From contig JACKPC010000001.1 of NCBI GenBank assembly GCA_024233835.1, forward strand, positions 1,285,442 to 1,349,441: a stretch of 64,000 nucleotides of DNA. Direction: 5' to 3'. Under the pieces are notes generated by a model. It had not been told where the DNA came from, ran no database searches, and worked only from the letters and a program-made list of their open reading frames with translations. Below, piece by piece: positions 1 to 55,634 of this stretch. The DNA is from Leptospiraceae bacterium (lineage in GTDB: Bacteria > Spirochaetota > Leptospiria > Leptospirales > Leptospiraceae). The translations under genes and the position numbers were made by a program. The number at the start of each line of letters is the position of its first letter. The first letter of the stretch is position 1.

Positions 1-1
1 G

Positions 2-3000
2 CCTACCGTATCGGGTCTTCTGGGAAGTGGCTTACAGCTTTCCGATGGAACGAATACGATAAGCCCCACAGCCAATGGTAGCTGGGCTTTCCCGGCAAGG
101 GCTTCCGGTCTCAGTTATAACGTGACAGTGGCAACACAGCCAACAAATCCCTGGCAGACCTGCTCAGTTACAAACGGTAGCGGGACTTTAACCGTTTCTG
201 ATGTGACGAATGTAACAGTCAGTTGTGTTACCAACACCTATACGATGGGAGGCACAATCAGTGGTTTTGGTTCGGGAACGGACTTAAGTATAACGGATGG
301 AGCCGGTAATACATTGACCCTGCCTGCAGGAAGCAGCACCTTCACTTTTCCCCTGCGGGATAGTGGCAGTAGCTACAGTGTGACTATTGCGACCCAGCCG
401 ACTTCTCCCTGGCAGACCTGTACGGTGACCAATGGTAGCGGTAATTTAACAAATGCGAATATAACGAATGTAAGTATTAGCTGCACTGTGAATACCTATA
501 CCATGTCGGGTTTTATATCGGGACAGGCAAATACTTCGACTTTAATCATCAATAATGGTACAGCCAATGTGACTCTTACCGGTCAGTCGAGTGACTACAA
601 TTATACGGAAAATCTAAACAGTGGCACTTCGTACAACTATACAATAGTGCAACAACCTCCGGGACAGTACTGTGTATTTGTCATGCAGACCCTACTTTCC
701 GGGACTGTGACAAACTCGAACCTTAACAACTTCGGCATCAACTGTGTGAACGGCTATCTGGTGAGTGGTCATATACAACAAAATCCACCGGCTCCGATTA
801 ATATGCACCTGTATCAGGGAAATGTGACTACCCTTGCGGGTAATGGAGTAACCGCAGGTACAGCCGACGGAACGGGTGCTGCGGGACAATTCAATACACC
901 TTCAGGAATCACATTCGATGGAACCTATTTTTATGTTGCTGATACAGGTAATCATAAGATAAAAAGAATTGATTCGAGTGGAAATGTAACTTCTATAGCA
1001 GGAAATGGAATTGCAGGTAATACCGATGGATCCGGGACTTCCATCTCTTCCTTAAATAGTCCAAGAGGGCTTACTACCGATGGAACCTATCTTTATATTT
1101 CAGAATCAAGTGGTAACAGAATCAAAAGGATGCGAATCTCAAGCGGATACGTGGAGACTCTTGCGGGTGATAATTCCGTTGTCTCACCTGCTGCGTCAAC
1201 TCTTGATGGCATAGGAACAGCGGCAAAGTTCAATACGCCTGCGGGAATTGTGGTAGATGGAAATTCTTTGATTATCGTGGAACGAGGTTCCAATGCTATT
1301 CGAGAATTAAATTTGAATACACTTTCTGTAAGCACACTAACAGTCTCAGGAGCAGCATTAAATCAAGCAGAAGGTATCGCACTTGTTGGGAACTACTTGT
1401 ATATTGCTAATTTAAATAGTCATAATATACTAAAAGTTGATAAAACTTCGGGTGTTTCCGTGGTCCTCGCCGGTGGAGCTGCGGGAGAGGTCGGGTATAT
1501 CGATGCTGTAGGTACCACTGCAAGGTTTAATCATCCACATGGGATTGTATCTGATGAAGTTAATCTTTATATAGCCGATTTTGATAATAACCTGATTCGG
1601 CAGCTAGAAATCAGTAGTGGAAGAGTAACAACTCTTGCCGGTACGGGAACAGGTGGAACATCTACCGATGGAATTGGTATCGCAGCTACTTTTAATAGTC
1701 CCAAATTTATGACCAGTGATGGAAAGAATCTGTATGTTGTCATGCATCATGCTATCCGCAAGCTCACCAACAACGGACTTGTGGGTTACTGGCCGCTTAC
1801 TACAAGTGCTGCTGACCATGCCGGAACAAACAACGGAACTTTATATAATTCGCCCGCTTTTACCGCTGCTGATAGATTTGCTGTGGCAAACTCTGCAATC
1901 ACTTTCAATGGCTCAAACCAATTTATTGAAGGTTCTGACTCCGGTTTGCCTTCAGGAGGAAATCCAAGAACAAGTTGTGCCTGGATAAATCCACAGGCAG
2001 TTATTAATGGACTGAGTCTTGTTTTTACCTATGGAACAAATACAGCTTACGGTGGACATGGTATTGCTATAGCAGGAAATGGAACTAAGTTAACCGGAAT
2101 TATGAGTTCCAATTTTGGTGGTTCTGATTTTACAGCACCTTATAACTTAGCAACAAACCAGTGGACACATATTTGTACTACTTATTCCGGCAGTTCAGCA
2201 GGAAATGTTGTGGGAGTTTATGCAAACGGAAAACTCATAGGACAGACTACAACAGGAAACTGGAATACAACTTTATCCGGTCTAATGCGAATAGGTAGCC
2301 AGATCACTAATGCACAGTATTTTAACGGCAATATTGCCGATGTTCGAATCTACAGCCGTGTGCTGAATGAAGGCGAAATCAACGAGCTGGCACAGAATGC
2401 TGCACCCGCACAGGTAGGTTCTACCTACAGCACAGGGGCAACGGGGCTATTGGCAGACTTCCATCTGGATGGTGGTAGTAACAATAGTAGTGGTGCTATT
2501 CCTGATCTGGGTCTTACGGGTTCAACTGGTGGTAATTTCCTCGGTAAGGATGGTGATGCAAATGGATCACGGATGTTTGATATATCCAGTAGTAATACAC
2601 TTAGCGGAACTACGCTCGGCCTTCCTCTTGGTGGAGCCCCTAGAACATTGTGCACATGGATAAATCCTGTATCTTACCCTCCTCCCGGAGGTGGTATTCC
2701 CGGCTGGTATTTTGCTGCCGGTTATGGTGGAACCAGTACAAGCTCTGCTTTTATGGTAGGTGTTTATAATAACTCAGGAATCATCAATCTAACCCTGGAT
2801 TTTGGAAATGATTCAGTTATGGCAGCCTATAATCCGGCACTGAATACCTGGACTCATGTTTGCGGAGTTTACGATGGCAGCACCGCTTATCTTTATGCTA
2901 ACGGTATGTTGTTGAATTCTGCTGCAAAATCCATCAATACAACAACGGGAAGTTTTACTATTGGAGCAAATACAAGTGGCAGCAGTTTTTTCAATGGAAA

Positions 3001-4405
3001 GATAGACGATGTTCGCATCTATAACAATGCACTCAACCAAACGCAAATCCGCCAACTTGCTACACAGGTTCCGACAGGACTTGTGGCCAGATATGATTTC
3101 AATGGAGACGCGAATGATGTAAGTGGATTTGGTGCTAATGGAACTGTATATGGAGCAACACTGACAAGTGACAGGTATGGAAACAGCAATTCAGCTTATA
3201 ATTTTAACCACAATAATCAAAACTACATTGAGGCTCCTCAACTGTTTTTACCTACCGGTTCAAGTTCCAGAACATTATGTGCTTATATTAGACCTCAAAA
3301 TTTACCTCCTACTGCACCGGATCCTCAAAGAGCTGTTTTATATTATGGCACAGCAACTACCAGCGGTGCCAATGGTTTAATCTTTGCATTTGATTATGAA
3401 GTGGCTGTTGCAGGTTATGCAGATGATTTAAGCTTAACCTATCGAACATCTCAAAATACCTGGAATTTCTTTTGTGGTACCTTTGATGGGTCTACAGCAA
3501 GATTGTATTATAATGGAAGGGAATTAATTAATGGAACAAAATCCTGGAATACGGGAACTGGAAATTTCTTTATTGGTAAAAGCTTAAGTACGGTTTATTT
3601 TAATGGAGATATAGACGATGTTCGCATCTATAATCGTGTCTTAACCGAATCGGAAATCCGTGCTTTAAGCGGCTATCATCCGATGCAGGTGACAAGCTGG
3701 AATCCGACGGTTGCCAGTAGTAGTTTACAGTTCCACGTTGCTGCTGATAGTTTTAGTAACCAGGCCGATAATACTACTGTCGGAAACTGGCCGGATATAA
3801 GCGGAAATGGCTTTTTAGGCACCCAATACAACGGGCCAGTTTTTAGAACTGGAGCTAATGGCTTAAATGGTAAACCGGCGATACAATTTAATGGTACTAA
3901 TCAATATTTTGATTTCGGTGCTCAATCAATAGCTTATAATGGTGCAACAGTATTCGCTGTGGCGAAAAATTCCATTTCTGATTATATTGGTAGACCGATA
4001 TTAAGTTATGAACTTGCTTCCGGAGGTTGTGTGACCAGAGTAAATTTGGAAAAAGATTTCACCAATCCGACAAATTATTATTTTGAAGGGCCGGCAAGTA
4101 GTGCGACAATTTCTGCAACTTTAAATGAATCACTTATATTAACCGGTATTCTTGAAGGAACATCCGCGCCAATTAAATTAGCTAAAAACGGAAACGCAGC
4201 TACTTCTGGAGCAAATGTTTCCCTGAGTGGGAATAATTCGTGTAATTTGCGTGCAGGTGGGAGAACAGACACAGCAGATAGATTTCAGGGACTCATTAGC
4301 GAGATCCTGTTATTTAAAGAGGCACTCGGTGTTCCCGACAAAGACATCGTCGAGTGTTATCTCTCTTCTAAATACAATATCCCTATCGGGCATAGCTGTC
4401 CGTAA
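2..4405 (+). CDS. Very large secreted multidomain protein, 5' partial. The reading frame is open back to the window edge. It has N-terminal Ig-like tandem repeats (TxATQPTxPWQTCxVTNGSG), a 6-blade NHL beta-propeller and 4-5 LamG / concanavalin A-like (Laminin_G_3) domains.
   Basis: The frame upstream of the ORF-track Met at 122 translates as ...LSYNVTVATQP, matching the internal repeat SYSVTIATQP, so the protein is truncated at the window edge. NHL motifs appear as FNTPxGIxxDGxYLYxAD..NxIxRxD, six times. LamG signature D(D/A)VRIY(N/S)RxL(T/N)xxEI appears four times, each preceded by YxF/LxGDxxDxSG. Confidence 0.8.
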   Translation, partial: PTVSGLLGSGLQLSDGTNTISPTANGSWAFPARASGLSYNVTVATQPTNPWQTCSVTNGSGTLTVSDVTNVTVSCVTNTYTMGGTISGFGSGTDLSITDGAGNTLTLPAGSSTFTFPLRDSGSSYSVTIATQPTSPWQTCTVTNGSGNLTNANITNVSISCTVNTYTMSGFISGQANTSTLIINNGTANVTLTGQSSDYNYTENLNSGTSYNYTIVQQPPGQYCVFVMQTLLSGTVTNSNLNNFGINCVNGYLVSGHIQQNPPAPINMHLYQGNVTTLAGNGVTAGTADGTGAAGQFNTPSGITFDGTYFYVADTGNHKIKRIDSSGNVTSIAGNGIAGNTDGSGTSISSLNSPRGLTTDGTYLYISESSGNRIKRMRISSGYVETLAGDNSVVSPAASTLDGIGTAAKFNTPAGIVVDGNSLIIVERGSNAIRELNLNTLSVSTLTVSGAALNQAEGIALVGNYLYIANLNSHNILKVDKTSGVSVVLAGGAAGEVGYIDAVGTTARFNHPHGIVSDEVNLYIADFDNNLIRQLEISSGRVTTLAGTGTGGTSTDGIGIAATFNSPKFMTSDGKNLYVVMHHAIRKLTNNGLVGYWPLTTSAADHAGTNNGTLYNSPAFTAADRFAVANSAITFNGSNQFIEGSDSGLPSGGNPRTSCAWINPQAVINGLSLVFTYGTNTAYGGHGIAIAGNGTKLTGIMSSNFGGSDFTAPYNLATNQWTHICTTYSGSSAGNVVGVYANGKLIGQTTTGNWNTTLSGLMRIGSQITNAQYFNGNIADVRIYSRVLNEGEINELAQNAAPAQVGSTYSTGATGLLADFHLDGGSNNSSGAIPDLGLTGSTGGNFLGKDGDANGSRMFDISSSNTLSGTTLGLPLGGAPRTLCTWINPVSYPPPGGGIPGWYFAAGYGGTSTSSAFMVGVYNNSGIINLTLDFGNDSVMAAYNPALNTWTHVCGVYDGSTAYLYANGMLLNSAAKSINTTTGSFTIGANTSGSSFFNGKIDDVRIYNNALNQTQIRQLATQVPTGLVARYDFNGDANDVSGFGANGTVYGATLTSDRYGNSNSAYNFNHNNQNYIEAPQLFLPTGSSSRTLCAYIRPQNLPPTAPDPQRAVLYYGTATTSGANGLIFAFDYEVAVAGYADDLSLTYRTSQNTWNFFCGTFDGSTARLYYNGRELINGTKSWNTGTGNFFIGKSLSTVYFNGDIDDVRIYNRVLTESEIRALSGYHPMQVTSWNPTVASSSLQFHVAADSFSNQADNTTVGNWPDISGNGFLGTQYNGPVFRTGANGLNGKPAIQFNGTNQYFDFGAQSIAYNGATVFAVAKNSISDYIGRPILSYELASGGCVTRVNLEKDFTNPTNYYFEGPASSATISATLNESLILTGILEGTSAPIKLAKNGNAATSGANVSLSGNNSCNLRAGGRTDTADRFQGLISEILLFKEALGVPDKDIVECYLSSKYNIPIGHSCP

Positions 4406-4415
4406 GGGAATAAAT

Positions 4416-4443
4416 GCAGACGAGAAAGCATTTTCTCGCCTGC
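4416..4443. terminator. Bidirectional hairpin terminator between the two convergent giant genes
   Basis: GCAGACGAGAAAGC-ATTT-TCTCGCCTGC imperfect inverted repeat (about 10 bp stem). It lies exactly in the 58-nt gap between the stop at 4405 (+) and the stop at 4464 (-). Confidence 0.5.
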
Positions 4444-4463
4444 ATAAGAAGAATTTTAGCTCT

Positions 4464-7400
4464 TTATAATTCTCCCTGATACAGGGAGTATATTTCTGCC
4501 TCTGTGAGTTCTCTATTATAAATTCTCACATCATCTATACTTCCGATGAAATAATCAGTATTCACCGGGTCACCGGCAATGTAGAAAGTAGTAGCAGCTG
4601 AGTTAAAATCTTTAGTACTGTTAAATATGGTTGATCCATTTACTATAATTTTTCTGTTGGTTCCGGTATATAGAAAGCAGGTGTGATACCATGTTCCGTT
4701 GGTACAGGAATAGGAATTATACCAGGTTCCATTTAAAATATTTCGATTTAAACCTATCTCAGTGGAAGATAAACGAGCTGCAAAGTTTGCATTACTATTA
4801 TCTCCACTAAAAAAGATGGCACGATTGGTTGCACTTAAAGAGGAGGGTTTAATCCAACCGCAAACAGTACGGGCTTCCGCAGCCGAAGGAAAATGTGCAG
4901 CAGATGTGGTGATCCAATTGGTTCCACTAAAACTGTAGGCTCTGTTGGCTGTGCCGTATCTGTCTGTACTTGTTGTAGGAGTATTTACAGGAGTCCCGTT
5001 GTCGCTAAACCCGTCTCCGGCATACTCATCGGTAAGGCTTCCTGAATTAAAGGGGTAGTAAGCGAGCATTCCCTTATCCGGATCGGCAGAAAGGATTTTA
5101 ATTTCATTCGCAGTCAGGGAGCGATCATAAATTCGAAGTTCATCGATACTTCCATTCATGCCGATTCCTCCGAGGTCAGCTCTGAGACCGATTCTTACTA
5201 CCGATGTGTTAACCGTTCCGGGGCTTATCGTTCCATTTCCATCGGCAACACCATTGATGTAGAGTTGATAGGATTCTGAAGTCTTGACTACCGCCACATG
5301 TGTCCAGGTAGAAGCCGGAATGGTAGCTGTGCTATCTACGTTAAGACCGGTTCCGGTATTAATTAAGAACTGTAATATATTCGTTCCCATTATACGAAAT
5401 TCAACATGGTGTCCGGAAGTTGCATCATGCCAGGCAATAATCTCATCATCGGTTCCGGCTGCTGTCCTGTAGATCCAGGCGGAAATTGTCATATTCGTGG
5501 GTAAACTAAAATGGGTACCGAGACTGATGTAGCTCGAAGTACTTCCATTGAATGTAGCTACTGTAGAAGTATTCGAGTATCGATTGGAACCTAAGGAAAC
5601 CCCCGTTGCGGTTCCATGATTGGCATTAACGCTGGCATCATCATAATTCGAATCAAAAGGATAGTAGGCATATAAATTAGAAAAAGTATATTCTCTTTTT
5701 TGAGTATATAAGGTTTTCTTTCCGCTGAGATCCGAGACGACTATATTAAAGTAATAAGCTTTTTCTGCACTGAGTCCTGTAATATTTGCAGAAGTAGTTC
5801 CTGTATACGTATTAAACAGGGTTCCGAGTGTTTCGGTTGAAGAAAGCGAAGTAAGGCAGGGGTAGGTTGCATAGTAAACCTTATAGCTTAAACTTCCCGC
5901 TGCGGTAGCCAGGTCGGAAGCTGCATTCCAGCTTAAGGTAAGAGAAGTGGATGCCACATTGCTTGTAAATATATATCCGTTGGCTACAGTAGGGTTTGTG
6001 AAATCATATTGAGCAGAGGGAGAACTTTGAACTGCGGTTCCTGCGAGATTATATTGATCTTTGGGGGTGACTTCAAAGCGTATGTATTTACCATCGTCTC
6101 CGGCTACAAGGGTATAGGTAGTATTTGTAGCTCCTGATATAGCAGAACAGGTGCCGCTTGTAGTATCGGTACAGCGATACCACTGGTAGGCATGAGTTCC
6201 GGGAAGATGTCCATCCACATCGTTATAAGTAAAGGTTCCGCTGAGCACAGAGCCAATGTTGCTTCCTCCGCTAAAAGCTACCAAACTGGCAGTTGGAGGG
6301 TTATTGGCAGCTACAGTAACGCTTACTGTATAGTTCTGGGTGCTGGCATCAGCGGCTGTTACCACGTAGCTCAGGGGAGTTGAAAAGTTATTGGCTGTAG
6401 TTCCTGAAACCTGGTTGACTCCACCCACCGTAATGCTACTTCCGGAAATAGAAAAATTGGCTACCAGAGCCGTCACATTGGTGTTGTAAGGAACGGTAAT
6501 TGCGATATTCGTTCCGCTGATAATACCTGTAGCTGTGGGGGAACTGAAACCAAACGATATAATTTCTTTGGCCGATAGACTATTGGTATCTGTAATAGCA
6601 AGACTAAAGGGATTTGTGCTTTCTCCTGCCGAATTTTTAGTAAAAACCAGAAAGTGTGTGGCCCCTGAAGGGATGCTTGTATTGGTATTGAAAGTGTAGC
6701 TGAGGTTTGTACCTGTCGCCGCCAAATCAGTAATATGACTTAACTTCGTGCTACTATTCGTTCCCCAGTAGAGGGCGTAGGAAGTGATATTGGATTCATC
6801 AGAAGCTTTTCCTATAGTTAAAATTCCTCCGATTTTTCCAACAGAAACATCCGAGTCTGAAAAGTTTAAAGAAGAAGCAGTTAGAGTAGGTGGACTGATT
6901 AGATCCGAAATAGCCGTACTGACTCCTGTTGACATTTGAACGGTTCCATTTTTAGTAAAAGCAAGCAGGTGAGTTGCCATTGCGGGAATAGCAGTAGAAG
7001 CTAAGGTATAGCTAATATTTTGATTTGTTTTGGAAAGAATTGCGATGGGGTTTCCAATTATTTCTGTAGCGGAACTTCCAAAATAGACCGCATAGGTTGT
7101 GACATCTGTTTCATCAGAAGCTTTTGTAATAGAAAGATTTCCTGCAATATAACCCTTGTTTCCATCTGTATCGGTGAAGTTGAGGGCTTCAGCCGCATGG
7201 GTCGGAGAAGTAAAAACAACAGGTTTTGCATCGCTTCCATCTTCTCCAAAAGCAGTAACGGTCATGACCATAGTTCCTGAGGTAGCCACAGGAGTTGGTG
7301 GAGGTGTATCTGCTGTAATTGTTTCAGGCAGAGAAACCGAAATTTCACCTAACTCTACTCCTGACTCACTGACTATAGTAACCTTAAAACTTCCCGGATT

Positions 7401-8027
7401 AAGTTTCATTTCATATTGACCGTTTTCATCCGTAAGAAATTTGGCCTGTGTGTCATTAATAAGTTTATTGGATCCACTTGTTTCTTCTCCCTTCGTGTTG
7501 TTACCGGAGACTGCCAGAAGGTATTTGGCACCATTCGGGGGACTGGTTCCGAGGTTGAGCATATATATATAAGAGCTTGCCCCGGTTTTCCAGAGTTTTG
7601 TAATACGGGAGAGTTTTTGGTTTTCGGCAGATGCCCAATAAAGGGAGTAAAAATTTATTTCTGTTTCGTCTACAGCTTTTGCAATTTTCACTGGTCCGGC
7701 AATTTTTCCCTTCGTAGGATCAATGTCCACAAAGTCCAATTTACCCGGAGCTTTTTCACTAACAACGGAAGTTCCACCAGTAATTTCTTTTTTTACAGAG
7801 GTTGTCGTGGATAAACTTCCGGCACTCACATTTAATGAGGCATTCTTTACAGTTTCTCCACCAGGAGAAAGTAAATTACCTTTTATTGAATACACGGGTT
7901 TTGGAGAACTTTTTTGTGTATTAAAAGCGGTGATTCGTATTAAGTTATCCTTGCTACTGCCTTCCGGTAGAAATGGATTACAGTGGATTATGAATAAAAA
8001 AATTATATTGAAAACTATAAATTTCAT
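4464..8027 (-). CDS. Large secreted or lipoprotein adhesin-like protein. It has a signal peptide, three tandem Ig-like repeats of about 85 aa, a BIG-like domain, an Ig-like domain, FN3 and two C-terminal LamG domains.
   Basis: The ORF-track start at 8057 is probably 10 codons too long. An AAGGA RBS precedes the ATG at 8027 (MKFIVFNIIFLFIIHC...). Repeat units contain FxDxDxxKGxIAGxxxIxKAxDExxxTxYAxYxG ... THxLxFTKN. LamG signatures are DELRIYDRSLTANEI and DDVRIYNRELTEAEI. Confidence 0.8.
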   Translation of the reverse strand: MKFIVFNIIFLFIIHCNPFLPEGSSKDNLIRITAFNTQKSSPKPVYSIKGNLLSPGGETVKNASLNVSAGSLSTTTSVKKEITGGTSVVSEKAPGKLDFVDIDPTKGKIAGPVKIAKAVDETEINFYSLYWASAENQKLSRITKLWKTGASSYIYMLNLGTSPPNGAKYLLAVSGNNTKGEETSGSNKLINDTQAKFLTDENGQYEMKLNPGSFKVTIVSESGVELGEISVSLPETITADTPPPTPVATSGTMVMTVTAFGEDGSDAKPVVFTSPTHAAEALNFTDTDGNKGYIAGNLSITKASDETDVTTYAVYFGSSATEIIGNPIAILSKTNQNISYTLASTAIPAMATHLLAFTKNGTVQMSTGVSTAISDLISPPTLTASSLNFSDSDVSVGKIGGILTIGKASDESNITSYALYWGTNSSTKLSHITDLAATGTNLSYTFNTNTSIPSGATHFLVFTKNSAGESTNPFSLAITDTNSLSAKEIISFGFSSPTATGIISGTNIAITVPYNTNVTALVANFSISGSSITVGGVNQVSGTTANNFSTPLSYVVTAADASTQNYTVSVTVAANNPPTASLVAFSGGSNIGSVLSGTFTYNDVDGHLPGTHAYQWYRCTDTTSGTCSAISGATNTTYTLVAGDDGKYIRFEVTPKDQYNLAGTAVQSSPSAQYDFTNPTVANGYIFTSNVASTSLTLSWNAASDLATAAGSLSYKVYYATYPCLTSLSSTETLGTLFNTYTGTTSANITGLSAEKAYYFNIVVSDLSGKKTLYTQKREYTFSNLYAYYPFDSNYDDASVNANHGTATGVSLGSNRYSNTSTVATFNGSTSSYISLGTHFSLPTNMTISAWIYRTAAGTDDEIIAWHDATSGHHVEFRIMGTNILQFLINTGTGLNVDSTATIPASTWTHVAVVKTSESYQLYINGVADGNGTISPGTVNTSVVRIGLRADLGGIGMNGSIDELRIYDRSLTANEIKILSADPDKGMLAYYPFNSGSLTDEYAGDGFSDNGTPVNTPTTSTDRYGTANRAYSFSGTNWITTSAAHFPSAAEARTVCGWIKPSSLSATNRAIFFSGDNSNANFAARLSSTEIGLNRNILNGTWYNSYSCTNGTWYHTCFLYTGTNRKIIVNGSTIFNSTKDFNSAATTFYIAGDPVNTDYFIGSIDDVRIYNRELTEAEIYSLYQGEL

Positions 8028-8209
8028 GATTGAGTTTTCCTTTGAATTGTATAGCATATAAGACTATACTTTTTTTTATATTTCTATTTTTTTGACAATT
8101 ATTTTTAAAACTAAAATGCCCTAAATATAAATATGATTCGACACCTTAATGCTCGTAGAAAAATATTAGTTATCAACTGATTTATGAATTCAGGTGTTAA
8201 GGGATAGAA

Positions 8210-9038
8210 ATGAAAGAATTTTTCTTTAAAGAAGGAATTCACCCCAGTGCTATAGTGGAAGATGGAGCGAAAATAGGGAGTGGTGTTTCGATTGGAGCCT
8301 ATTCCGTTATAGGTCCCAATGTTGTACTGAAAGACGGTGTGAAAATTGCTCAAAATGTAATGGTTTCCGGGTTTACAACTATAGAAGAGGAAGCTGAAAT
8401 ATATCCATTTAATATAATAGGTGGCCCGGCTCAGGATCTGAAATACCTGGAGTATGAAGGAAAATTGAAGATTGGAAAAAAAGACTATTGTTCGGGAACA
8501 TACCAGCATACATGCAGGAACTCCTCATTCCGAACATCAGACGGTAATCGGAGATAGTGTCTATATCATGGCTGCCACTCATATCGGTCATGATGTTATG
8601 ATTGGTAATCATTCTATTATTGCAAGCGTTGGTATTGCCGGGCACGTAGAAATTGCAGACCATGTTGTTCTTGGTGCCAGAGCAGGTTTTCATCAGTTTG
8701 TGCATATCGGTCGCTTTGTCATGACGGCCGGTGTAGCAGCCTTCACCAAAGATGTACCTCCCTTTGCCATATCCGAACATGAAAGACCAAATGAATTTTC
8801 CGGCTTAAACGTTATCGGTTTGAAGCGTAATGGGTTTAAGAAGTCGGATATCCAGGAAATCAGGGAAATTTACAAGTATCTGTATTCTTTAAAAGGAAAA
8901 ATAAAAAATAGAACAGGTCCTTTACTGGAGAAATTTCCCGGAAGTGCTTACGCAAAAGAGATTGCGGAGTTCATTAATAAATCAAAAATGAATATCTGTA
9001 CTCCGGGAAGAAGGGGAGTCTCCTCGGAAGAAGAATAA
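8210..9038 (+). pseudogene. lpxA: UDP-N-acetylglucosamine O-acyltransferase LpxA, split into two overlapping frames by a 1-nt insertion in an A7 homopolymer at 8476-8482
   Basis: The left-handed beta-helix hexapeptide repeat protein aligns end to end with LpxA (IHPSAIVEDGAKIG...; ...IVREHTSIHAGT...MAATHIGHDVMIGNHSIIAS...FSGLNVIGLKRNGF). Deleting one A gives the continuous sequence KLKIGKKTIVREHTSIH, which parallels E. coli RVEIGDRNRIRESVTIH. Confidence 0.8.
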
Positions 9039-9053
9039 ATATATTCAATAAAG

Positions 9054-9087
9054 AATCTCAGGGAAGAAGTTCAAACTCCCTGAGATT
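9054..9087. terminator. Strong bidirectional hairpin (11-bp perfect stem) between lpxA (+) and the convergent membrane-protein gene (-)
   Basis: AATCTCAGGGA-agaagttcaaac-TCCCTGAGATT, followed by a T-rich tract on the + strand (tttactctttttctg). Confidence 0.55.
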
Positions 9088-9091
9088 AAAT

Positions 9092-27290: not shown

Positions 27291-27737
27291 ATGAAAAAGC
27301 GAATTCTCTATTTTCTTTTATTCTTTCTTCCACTTCATTTAGTTCCGGAGCATATTCTGCGAAATCCACTTCTGGATATTTCCATAGGCGGAAAAAGACT
27401 GCGAGTAGAAATAGCAGCCAGCCCCGAAGCCAGACAAACGGGGCTTATGTTTCGGGAAACTATGGAGGAAAATACAGGAATGCTATTTATCTTTCCTACA
27501 GAAGAATACAGAACTTTCTGGATGAAAAATACTTACCTGCCCCTGTCCATTGCCTATTTCGGGAAGGACAGGATTCTATTTGAAACCATGGACATGCGAC
27601 CCCTGCAAACCAATGAAGTTTATCCATCTTCCGGGAAAGCTATGTATGCACTCGAAGTGAACCAGGGTTGGTATGATAGAAATGGTATTAAAAAAGGAGC
27701 TGTTCTGAATATTCCCGATGGAATCAGGGCGTATTAA
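27291..27737 (+). CDS. DUF192-domain protein with signal peptide
   Basis: RLRVEIAASPEARQTGLMFRETM...GMLFIFP...FWMKNTYLPLSIAYF. Confidence 0.55.
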   Translation: MKKRILYFLLFFLPLHLVPEHILRNPLLDISIGGKRLRVEIAASPEARQTGLMFRETMEENTGMLFIFPTEEYRTFWMKNTYLPLSIAYFGKDRILFETMDMRPLQTNEVYPSSGKAMYALEVNQGWYDRNGIKKGAVLNIPDGIRAY

Positions 27738-54879: not shown

Positions 54880-54896
54880 TAGAGACGTTTTTCACT

Positions 54897-55634
54897 TTAT
54901 CCTTTTTTAGAAATATCTAAAAAAGGATAGGGTTGTATTAGCTGTTCTACGAGAACATGATTAGGATGCCGAAAAACTTCCTCAATCGTATCATCCTGCA
55001 AAATTCTTCCTTCTGAATAAATTATTACTCTGTCTGCAATTCTACGAGCTTCCAGAATGTCATGGGTAATCAGGACGATAGGAATATTATAATTATCCCG
55101 AATATCTCTCAATAAATTTTGCATTTCTATTCGTATGGGAGTATCTAAAGATGAGAAAGGTTCATCGAGTAGGAGAAGCTCCGGTTTTCGAACAAGGGAA
55201 CGTGCGAGAGCTACCCTTTGTTTTTGCCCTCCGGATATTTCCTGTGAAGAACGATGCAGTAGCGATTTGAGCTGCATTTGTTCAGCAATTTCCATCACTC
55301 TTTCTTTTTTTTCTTTCTTGGGTAAGTCTTTTAGCCCATAACAAATATTTTCTTCGACTGTCATATGAGGGAAAAGAGAATTTGTCTGGAATACATAGCC
55401 GAAAGGTCTTTTTTGCGGAGGAATATCTATTTTTAGATCCGAGTCGTAATAAACTTTATCTCCATATATAATCTGTCCGGTATCGGGCTTTGAAAAGCCG
55501 CTGATATGGTTAAGAGTCATGCTTTTTCCGGCTCCCGAAGAACCAAATAATACGCTTATCTCATTATAGGCATCCCAGCTTACATCGAGGGTAAAGGAAG
55601 GAAATTTTTTTTGAACCTTTACGGATAGCTTCAT
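54897..55634 (-). CDS. modC: Molybdate (or tungstate) ABC transporter ATP-binding protein. It is a short form without a C-terminal TOBE domain.
   Basis: GSSGAGKSM, LSGGQKQRVALAR, LLLDEP. It lies last in the modA-modB-modC order. Confidence 0.7.
   Translation of the reverse strand: MKLSVKVQKKFPSFTLDVSWDAYNEISVLFGSSGAGKSMTLNHISGFSKPDTGQIIYGDKVYYDSDLKIDIPPQKRPFGYVFQTNSLFPHMTVEENICYGLKDLPKKEKKERVMEIAEQMQLKSLLHRSSQEISGGQKQRVALARSLVRKPELLLLDEPFSSLDTPIRIEMQNLLRDIRDNYNIPIVLITHDILEARRIADRVIIYSEGRILQDDTIEEVFRHPNHVLVEQLIQPYPFLDISKKG

Follow-up and report, generated by a model that had tools for sequence, protein, structure and literature searches.

Two convergent Leptospiraceae genes encoding very large modular LamG proteins, probably lipid-anchored surface binding proteins

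LamG domains belong to a common jelly-roll family, several members of which have been solved. When the five LamG domains considered here were compared as a profile with solved structures, matches ranged from E 1.4e-14 down to 1e-4, the closest relative being the C-terminal domain of an extracellular arabinanase (5hon/5ho0, E 1.4e-14). The other solved relatives are an S-layer domain protein, the pentraxins PTX3 and SAP, the lectin domain of a sialidase and the Hc-N domain of clostridial neurotoxin. A second group of reference systems are the Gram-positive adhesins, which bind their targets via A-region domains, while the binding modules described below are of the LamG and NHL types. In the literature on LamG, NHL or concanavalin-like proteins of Leptospira, no published study of or experiment on the present protein family was found; the TPR/NHL protein LIC12730 of L. 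interrogans is a marginal case and unrelated to it (PMC2889836). Here we describe two convergent open reading frames, ORF A and ORF B, at the beginning of a stretch of 64,000 nucleotides (nt) from a Leptospiraceae bacterium (contig JACKPC010000001.1), hereafter called the window. We consider it probable that they are independent chromosomal Leptospiraceae genes, which encode very large, non-enzymatic, modular surface binding proteins anchored by lipid.

Residues of ORF A were counted from window base 2 and those of ORF B from an ATG at 8057. ORF A (2-4405, plus strand, 1467 codons plus stop) is open from base 2 up to an intact stop codon at 4403-4405. The first in-frame start is a GTG at 122, giving 1427 amino acids (aa). 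As the collinear homologues are 1950-2440 aa long, the 5′ end of ORF A clearly lies outside the window, and judged from these homologues some 500-990 aa would be missing. ORF B (4464-8027, minus strand) is complete and intact. Starting from the ATG at 8027 it encodes 1187 aa, which together with the stop makes 1188 codons, and the frame extends to the ATG at 8057 (1197 aa). A GGA is located 10 nt upstream of the ATG at 8027, whereas the ATG at 8057 is not preceded by a Shine-Dalgarno-like sequence. The GGA and the classic short signal peptide encoded there make 8027 the better start. The genes are arranged tail to tail with 58 bp between their stop codons. An earlier note, made from the DNA letters, had described two convergent giant modular LamG proteins of adhesin-type build, and its reading frames, its Laminin_G_3 and NHL domains and its lengths of 1427 aa and 1188 codons were reproduced in our analysis.

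The Laminin_G_3 domains (PF13385, gathering cut-off 27.6 bits) dominate the C-terminal parts of both proteins. ORF A matched the family with 221.1 bits (E 9e-66) in three stretches at residues 592-799, 815-1024 and 1026-1227, which are encoded between 1775 and 3682. ORF B matched with 168.9 bits (E 1e-49) in two stretches, encoded at 5085-5675 and 4467-5072 (minus strand; 4467-5675 overall). The Laminin_G_3 signature that had been noticed earlier in both proteins was confirmed by the hidden Markov model. The last 233 residues of ORF A (3704-4402) form a further unit, which reached only a sub-threshold Laminin_G_3 score of 19.8 bits when scanned alone. When its profile was aligned to that of the five canonical LamG domains, however, hhalign gave this C-terminal domain a probability of 95.6% and an E-value of 1.2e-8 over 177 columns, and the profiles of both kinds of domain hit each other's members. 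The last module of ORF A is thus a divergent LamG-like jelly roll, the fourth of the protein. The domain occupied the extreme C-terminus in 34 of the 34 family members recovered, and its alignment displayed an invariant C-Y-L-S..Y tail.

In ORF A the LamG array is preceded by an NHL beta-propeller of six blades (approximately residues 265-600; 794-1801, plus strand). The Pfam NHL family (PF01436, cut-off 20 bits) scored 44.6 bits, and blade motifs were readable at residues 297, 351, 410, 453, 509 and 564, in agreement with the six-bladed propeller proposed earlier. Solved NHL-repeat proteins matching this propeller include NHLRC2 and SOQ1 (E 2.6e-21) as well as a teneurin-like protein (3e-13).

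The readable N-terminal part of ORF A consists of three tandem beta-sandwich repeats of about 86 aa (residues 2-86, 85-172 and 172-258; 2-775, plus strand), which are characterised by an invariant Cys pair and the motif TQPxxPxQTCxV. No Pfam family matched these repeats even at E <= 1. An AlphaFold model calculated from 30 copies was confident (pLDDT, the predicted local distance difference test, 91.5), and the modelled fold is CnaB/prealbumin-like. Among the retrieved proteins, 104 contain repeats of this type, with 3-22 copies per array. Several of the carriers that have source names come from Polyangia or Myxococcaceae. In the Leptospira homologues of ORF A that are full-length, five or six copies are present.

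ORF B contains repeats of another kind. Three FN3-like units of about 108 aa at residues 99-204, 284-386 and 389-492 are encoded at 7446-7763, 6900-7208 and 6582-6893, respectively (minus strand; 6582-7763 overall). The repeat gave no significant Pfam match (best score 18.3 bits, below cut-off), and a sequence-profile search of the PDB returned noise only. A model built from 38 copies displayed seven strands with a pLDDT of 96.7, and its top fold matches in the PDB were all FN3 domains (probability 1.0, TM-score 0.5-0.64, E >= 8e-3). Among 1.84 billion representative proteins, the repeat was detected in 1616 at E <= 1e-3 and in 979 at E <= 1e-10, with a maximum of 53 copies in a protein of 5850 aa. 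Both flanks of the first repeat showed a weak CarboxypepD_reg/SdrD_B-like signal.

The middle of ORF B (5682-6581, minus strand) comprises a DUF5018/Cadherin-like sandwich (6282-6581), an AIR9-type Ig domain (6018-6290) and a probable fn3 domain (5682-6020). Scores of the sandwich were sub-threshold for DUF5018 (26.6 bits against 38.2) and for Cadherin-like (18.4 against 24.2). IG_AIR9 scored 27.9 bits against a cut-off of 27.5, and fn3 (PF00041, cut-off 25) 28.5 bits with the segment alone and 22.3 bits in the scan of the whole protein. No Big family was found in the whole protein at E <= 0.01, nor at E <= 1 in seven segments of ORF B, which covered most of the protein outside the two LamG domains and parts of the FN3-like repeats. 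'BIG-like', as this region had been called, is therefore the wrong name: the place is taken by the DUF5018/Cadherin-like sandwich and the AIR9-type Ig domain. The FN3 assignment is supported by the scan of the segment alone. The Ig-like repeats reported for both proteins correspond to beta-sandwich repeats, which are present in ORF A as well as in ORF B.

An export signal is encoded at the 5′ end of ORF B (7980-8027, minus strand). From the ATG at 8027 the protein begins with MKFIVFNIIFLFIIHC, whose final Cys is followed by NPF, as in the relatives P0002 and P0003. The search for a signal peptide and lipobox, which the earlier note had suggested, thus yielded a lipoprotein signal in ORF B, as judged by comparison with relatives, whose signals end in ...TALFSC before NPF (P0002), ...FVLCSC before NPF (P0003) and ...GLISC before NF (P0005). 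With its basic n-region, hydrophobic h-region and lipobox Cys, the predicted signal peptide fits the signature of bacterial (spirochaetal) lipoproteins. Signals with a conserved Cys were also seen in the ORF A family (P0034, P0036, P0044, P0060 and P0061). N-termini in this family include ...LLVSAC, ...PLFAC, ...PTLSC, ...LFSC and ...TFSHC. A Cys following a hydrophobic N-terminal stretch was found in all 11 full-length relatives inspected.

In the arrangement we favor, both proteins would be exported and anchored through a lipid on the N-terminal Cys, the signal being seen in ORF B and in the full-length relatives of ORF A. The small beta-sandwich modules, whose folds are described above, would act as a stalk, built from CnaB-like repeats in ORF A and from FN3-like repeats, the DUF5018-like sandwich, the AIR9 Ig domain and fn3 in ORF B. 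The stalk would present distal binding modules, namely the NHL propeller and four LamG jelly rolls in ORF A and two LamG jelly rolls in ORF B. By analogy with the closest solved relatives, the ligands of these modules may be glycans or proteins present on surfaces, particles or matrix.

Several points weigh against this reading. Localisation, lipidation and ligand are all deduced from sequence, and the window does not include the N-terminus of ORF A itself. The ORF B lipobox has an unusual His at position -1, yet SHC likewise occurs in P0036. Moreover, a spirochaete lipobox does not decide between the cell surface and the periplasmic leaflet.

A role in nutrient capture is the more serious of the functional alternatives, although we regard it as unlikely. 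The LamG domains would then serve as carbohydrate-binding modules, which hold plant or algal polysaccharide at the envelope, possibly in the periplasm, for separate hydrolases. The arabinanase origin of the best solved LamG relative favors such a role, and genes for glycoside hydrolases (GH) of families GH31 and GH43 occur near ORF A-like genes in some relatives. These neighbors are not conserved between relatives, however, and no hydrolase, TonB-receptor or transporter genes adjoin ORF A or ORF B in the window. Furthermore, a long beta-sandwich stalk and an NHL propeller are more typical of binders projecting from the surface.

That the proteins are enzymes themselves is suggested by a name, 'glucanase', under which the L. 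biflexa and L. kanakyensis homologues appear in their source entries, and by the Pfam family description 'Concanavalin A-like lectin/glucanases superfamily'. Searches of both ORFs with Pfam and NCBIfam revealed no glycoside hydrolase or other catalytic domain, neither protein contains the GH16 ExDxxE motif, and the solved relatives are binding domains. The glucanase reading, to which we give almost no credence, was rejected for the lack of catalytic features; most likely the name derives from the superfamily label.

Relatives of ORF A were listed as the best 120 of 922 matches. Homologues from the saprophytic clade of Leptospira, named 'glucanase' or 'LamG-like jellyroll fold domain-containing protein', were 36-38% identical over 94-99% of the readable part, and homologues from Leptospiraceae metagenome-assembled genomes (MAGs) 43-44% identical over about 88%. 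All named full-length relatives within these best 120 matches belonged to saprophytic Leptospira or to uncultured Leptospiraceae MAGs, which lends no support to the host interaction previously suggested for the two proteins. Both the Leptospira proteins (P0044 of L. kanakyensis and P0060 of L. biflexa, approximately 1957-1973 aa) and the MAG versions (P0034, P0035, P0037 and P0079, 2318-2439 aa) are collinear with ORF A and share its module order of 86-aa repeats, NHL propeller, three Laminin_G_3 domains and C-terminal LamG-like domain. In the MAG versions, the N-terminal third, which for ORF A lies outside the window, contains Calx-beta and Big_5 domains.

For ORF B no match above 51% identity was obtained among 5.8 billion proteins, and the few relatives came from MAGs. 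When GTDB species representatives were scanned for exact peptides of ORF B, no relative was detected. The 999-aa Spirochaetota 'LamG domain-containing protein' P0003 was 34% identical over ORF B residues 397-1196 and 46% identical over residues 12-271. Its overall order is that of ORF B, including two Laminin_G_3 domains at the end, with one FN3-like repeat in place of three. The 915-aa hypothetical protein P0005 from a Leptospiraceae MAG showed 43% identity over residues 12-794, where the alignment stops short of both LamG domains of ORF B. Both P0003 and P0005 share the lipobox and the N-terminal arrangement of ORF B. P0002 (711 aa) matched ORF B up to residue 686 only.

The gene pair was also compared with the corresponding loci of related genomes, as had been proposed, and was not kept in any locus examined. 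ORF A-like genes are located between SpoIIE/ATP_bind_3 genes and a gene for an EngB-like GTPase (in one case as a tandem pair) or, in L. biflexa, in an unrelated context. ORF B-like genes are found at other places, and P0003 has no ORF A-like neighbor. Adjacency of the two types was seen neither in the ORF A-like loci (two MAG lineages and L. biflexa) nor in the ORF B-like loci (two MAGs), and among the loci examined the pairing is not a conserved unit. A co-functioning, co-regulated pair, whose expression is coupled by the shared hairpin described below, is accordingly very improbable. The two genes are adjacent, have LamG chemistry in common and enclose one hairpin in their 58-bp spacer, but convergent genes give separate transcripts, A-like and B-like genes are never neighbors in the genomes just named, and the LamG domains of ORF A and ORF B are only 25-31% identical to each other.

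Two of the related loci displayed tandem arrangements of their own. A Leptospiraceae metagenome contig (L082, 10001-24715) carries two ORF A-family genes of 2329 and 2439 aa in tandem on the same strand, indicating that the family expands by local duplication. On the contig encoding P0003 (L085, 6847-9155), three genes of about 242 aa with a phage tail-collar domain (PF07484) follow each other in tandem.

A hairpin with a stem of 13-14 bp and a loop of 4 nt is located in the spacer at 4415-4445, a candidate bidirectional terminator. The hairpin sequence, GCAGaCGAGAAAgcatTTTCTCGcCTGC at 4416-4443, lies 10 nt past the stop codon of ORF A and 18 nt past that of ORF B. The calculated folding energy was -20.3 kcal/mol for the plus strand (z-score relative to shuffled sequences -3.6) and -21.7 kcal/mol for the minus strand (z-score -4.7). 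It ranks sixth among the most stable 36-nt hairpins at about 64,000 window positions. The sequence is unique in the window, and a repeated, REP-like (repetitive extragenic palindromic) hairpin was rejected on this ground. On the minus strand the stem is followed by UUUAUUCC with five U in eight positions, on the plus strand by AUAAGAAG with one U in eight. The poor U-tract of the plus strand counts against a terminator shared by both genes, as does the result of a consensus terminator scan, which did not call the hairpin at 4415-4445 and instead called a stem of 7 bp at 4472-4488 (plus strand) within the last codons of ORF B. This small hairpin and its T-rich tail read CTCCCTGATACAGGGAG TATATTTCTG, and it could be an additional stop for read-through from ORF A.

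Three further hairpins among the 15 most stable, at 9053-9088, 27540-27575 and 54896-54931, are likewise located in spacers of convergent genes, with energies of -16.3 to -16.8 kcal/mol over 36 nt. Bidirectional ends of the hairpin type look like the ordinary way in which this genome ends convergent transcripts. By analogy with them, the 4415-4445 hairpin would most likely terminate the transcripts of one or both genes. A U-rich tail is present on the minus-strand side only, so that the plausible role of the hairpin as shared terminator is better supported for ORF B than for ORF A. Of the single shared terminator proposed in the earlier note, the hairpin between the stop codons is present, and the sharing is plausible only.

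The 8-kb region differs from its surroundings in composition. Its G+C content (GC) is 0.425 over bases 1-8057 compared to 0.378 in the rest of the window, as had been noticed before. The excess resides wholly at the second codon position, where GC was 0.505 in ORF A and 0.492 in ORF B versus 0.332 +/- 0.036 in 45 other ORFs. In contrast, GC at the third position (GC3) was 0.332 and 0.345, respectively, the window mean being 0.345 +/- 0.038. When the amino acid sequence of each protein was combined with the codon frequencies of the remaining genes in the window, a GC of 0.440 was predicted for ORF A and 0.422 for ORF B, close to the observed 0.432 and 0.420. Codon choice deviated less (0.060 and 0.048) than it does in the remaining long genes (0.075 +/- 0.015). 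The combined share of Gly, Ala, Thr and Ser is 42% in each protein versus 23% elsewhere, that of Lys plus Glu 3-7% versus 16%. The raised G+C is a by-product of a Thr/Ser/Gly/Ala/Asn-rich and Lys/Glu-poor composition. With GC3 and codon usage both typical, and with a GC that the composition predicts, the excess is uninformative on origin. This is the outcome that the earlier note had named as refuting its point on G+C. A horizontally acquired island marked by higher G+C would account for the compositional step and for the juxtaposition of A and B that is absent from relatives. This explanation has next to no probability and was rejected on GC3 and codon usage. In addition, no tRNA gene was found in the window and no mobility gene among the neighbors scanned, the closest homologues among the matches listed are all from Leptospiraceae, and the only visible border, on the ORF B side, adjoins housekeeping genes, the upstream border being outside the window.

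The neighbors of the two genes are ordinary chromosomal, housekeeping genes. Near ORF B lie an lpxA-like gene and genes for DUF2339, SPFH, PAS kinase, aldehyde dehydrogenase, HDOD, EAL and SufCDS proteins, and more distant in the window are genes for a SpoIIE phosphatase, DprA, NnrS, a sulfatase and others. The SufS protein encoded in the window shares 72-78% identity with proteins from uncultured Leptospiraceae MAGs and 71-72% with those of Leptospira species, which supports an origin from Leptospiraceae. A profile search detected no further paralogues or copies of ORF A or ORF B modules elsewhere in the window, and neither Rfam nor ARAGORN found RNA genes in it. The lpxA-like gene (8210-9038, plus strand), which encodes hexapeptide repeats and LpxA domain 2, is split into overlapping ORFs at 8210-8557 and 8472-9038. 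It contains a run of seven A at 8476-8482 (GGAAAAAAAG at 8474), and one A less would restore a single ORF of 275 aa. The split may be an error of sequencing in the homopolymer, or else a true frameshift or pseudogene.

RefSeq already contains named representatives of the architecture and family of ORF A, whereas ORF B combines modules of known kinds into a new mosaic. Mildly new are only the two stalk repeats of 86 and 108 aa, neither of which has a Pfam model. As a tentative proposal, which is more doubtful than probable, the 86-aa repeat with its up to 22 copies and the 108-aa repeat may represent undescribed domain families, and the C-terminal LamG-like domain of ORF A a family-specific functional unit, for example in ligand binding or surface sorting. 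Both stalk repeats are widespread and could become domain families. The biological weight of the two genes is modest: they enlarge by two the already large set of uncharacterised LamG-type lipoproteins in Leptospiraceae, for which such proteins are an ordinary kind of gene. If exposed on the surface, they would be candidates for environmental adhesion or attachment to biofilms in free-living leptospires. On a practical note, the label 'glucanase' on the homologues has no catalytic feature behind it, and a GC bump over genes for Thr/Ser/Gly/Ala-rich surface proteins calls for a check of GC3 before it is read as horizontal transfer.

Compared with known systems, ORF A is closest to its own family, but at less than 45% identity to the members it is not the orthologue of a gene in any sampled species, and its genomic context differs. 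Unlike the solved LamG relatives, both proteins carry their LamG modules in arrays of two to four on a putative lipoprotein without catalytic or toxin domain, and the ligand specificity of the solved lectin modules is not transferable at this distance. The stalk of ORF A resembles that of the Gram-positive CnaB-stalk adhesins and pilins Cna, SdrD, PitA and the TIE protein of B. anthracis in its modelled fold, with no sequence homology (9-22% identity). The 86-aa repeat has its conserved Cys pair, and whereas those Gram-positive proteins are attached by LPXTG motif and sortase, the anchor of the Leptospiraceae proteins would be a lipid.

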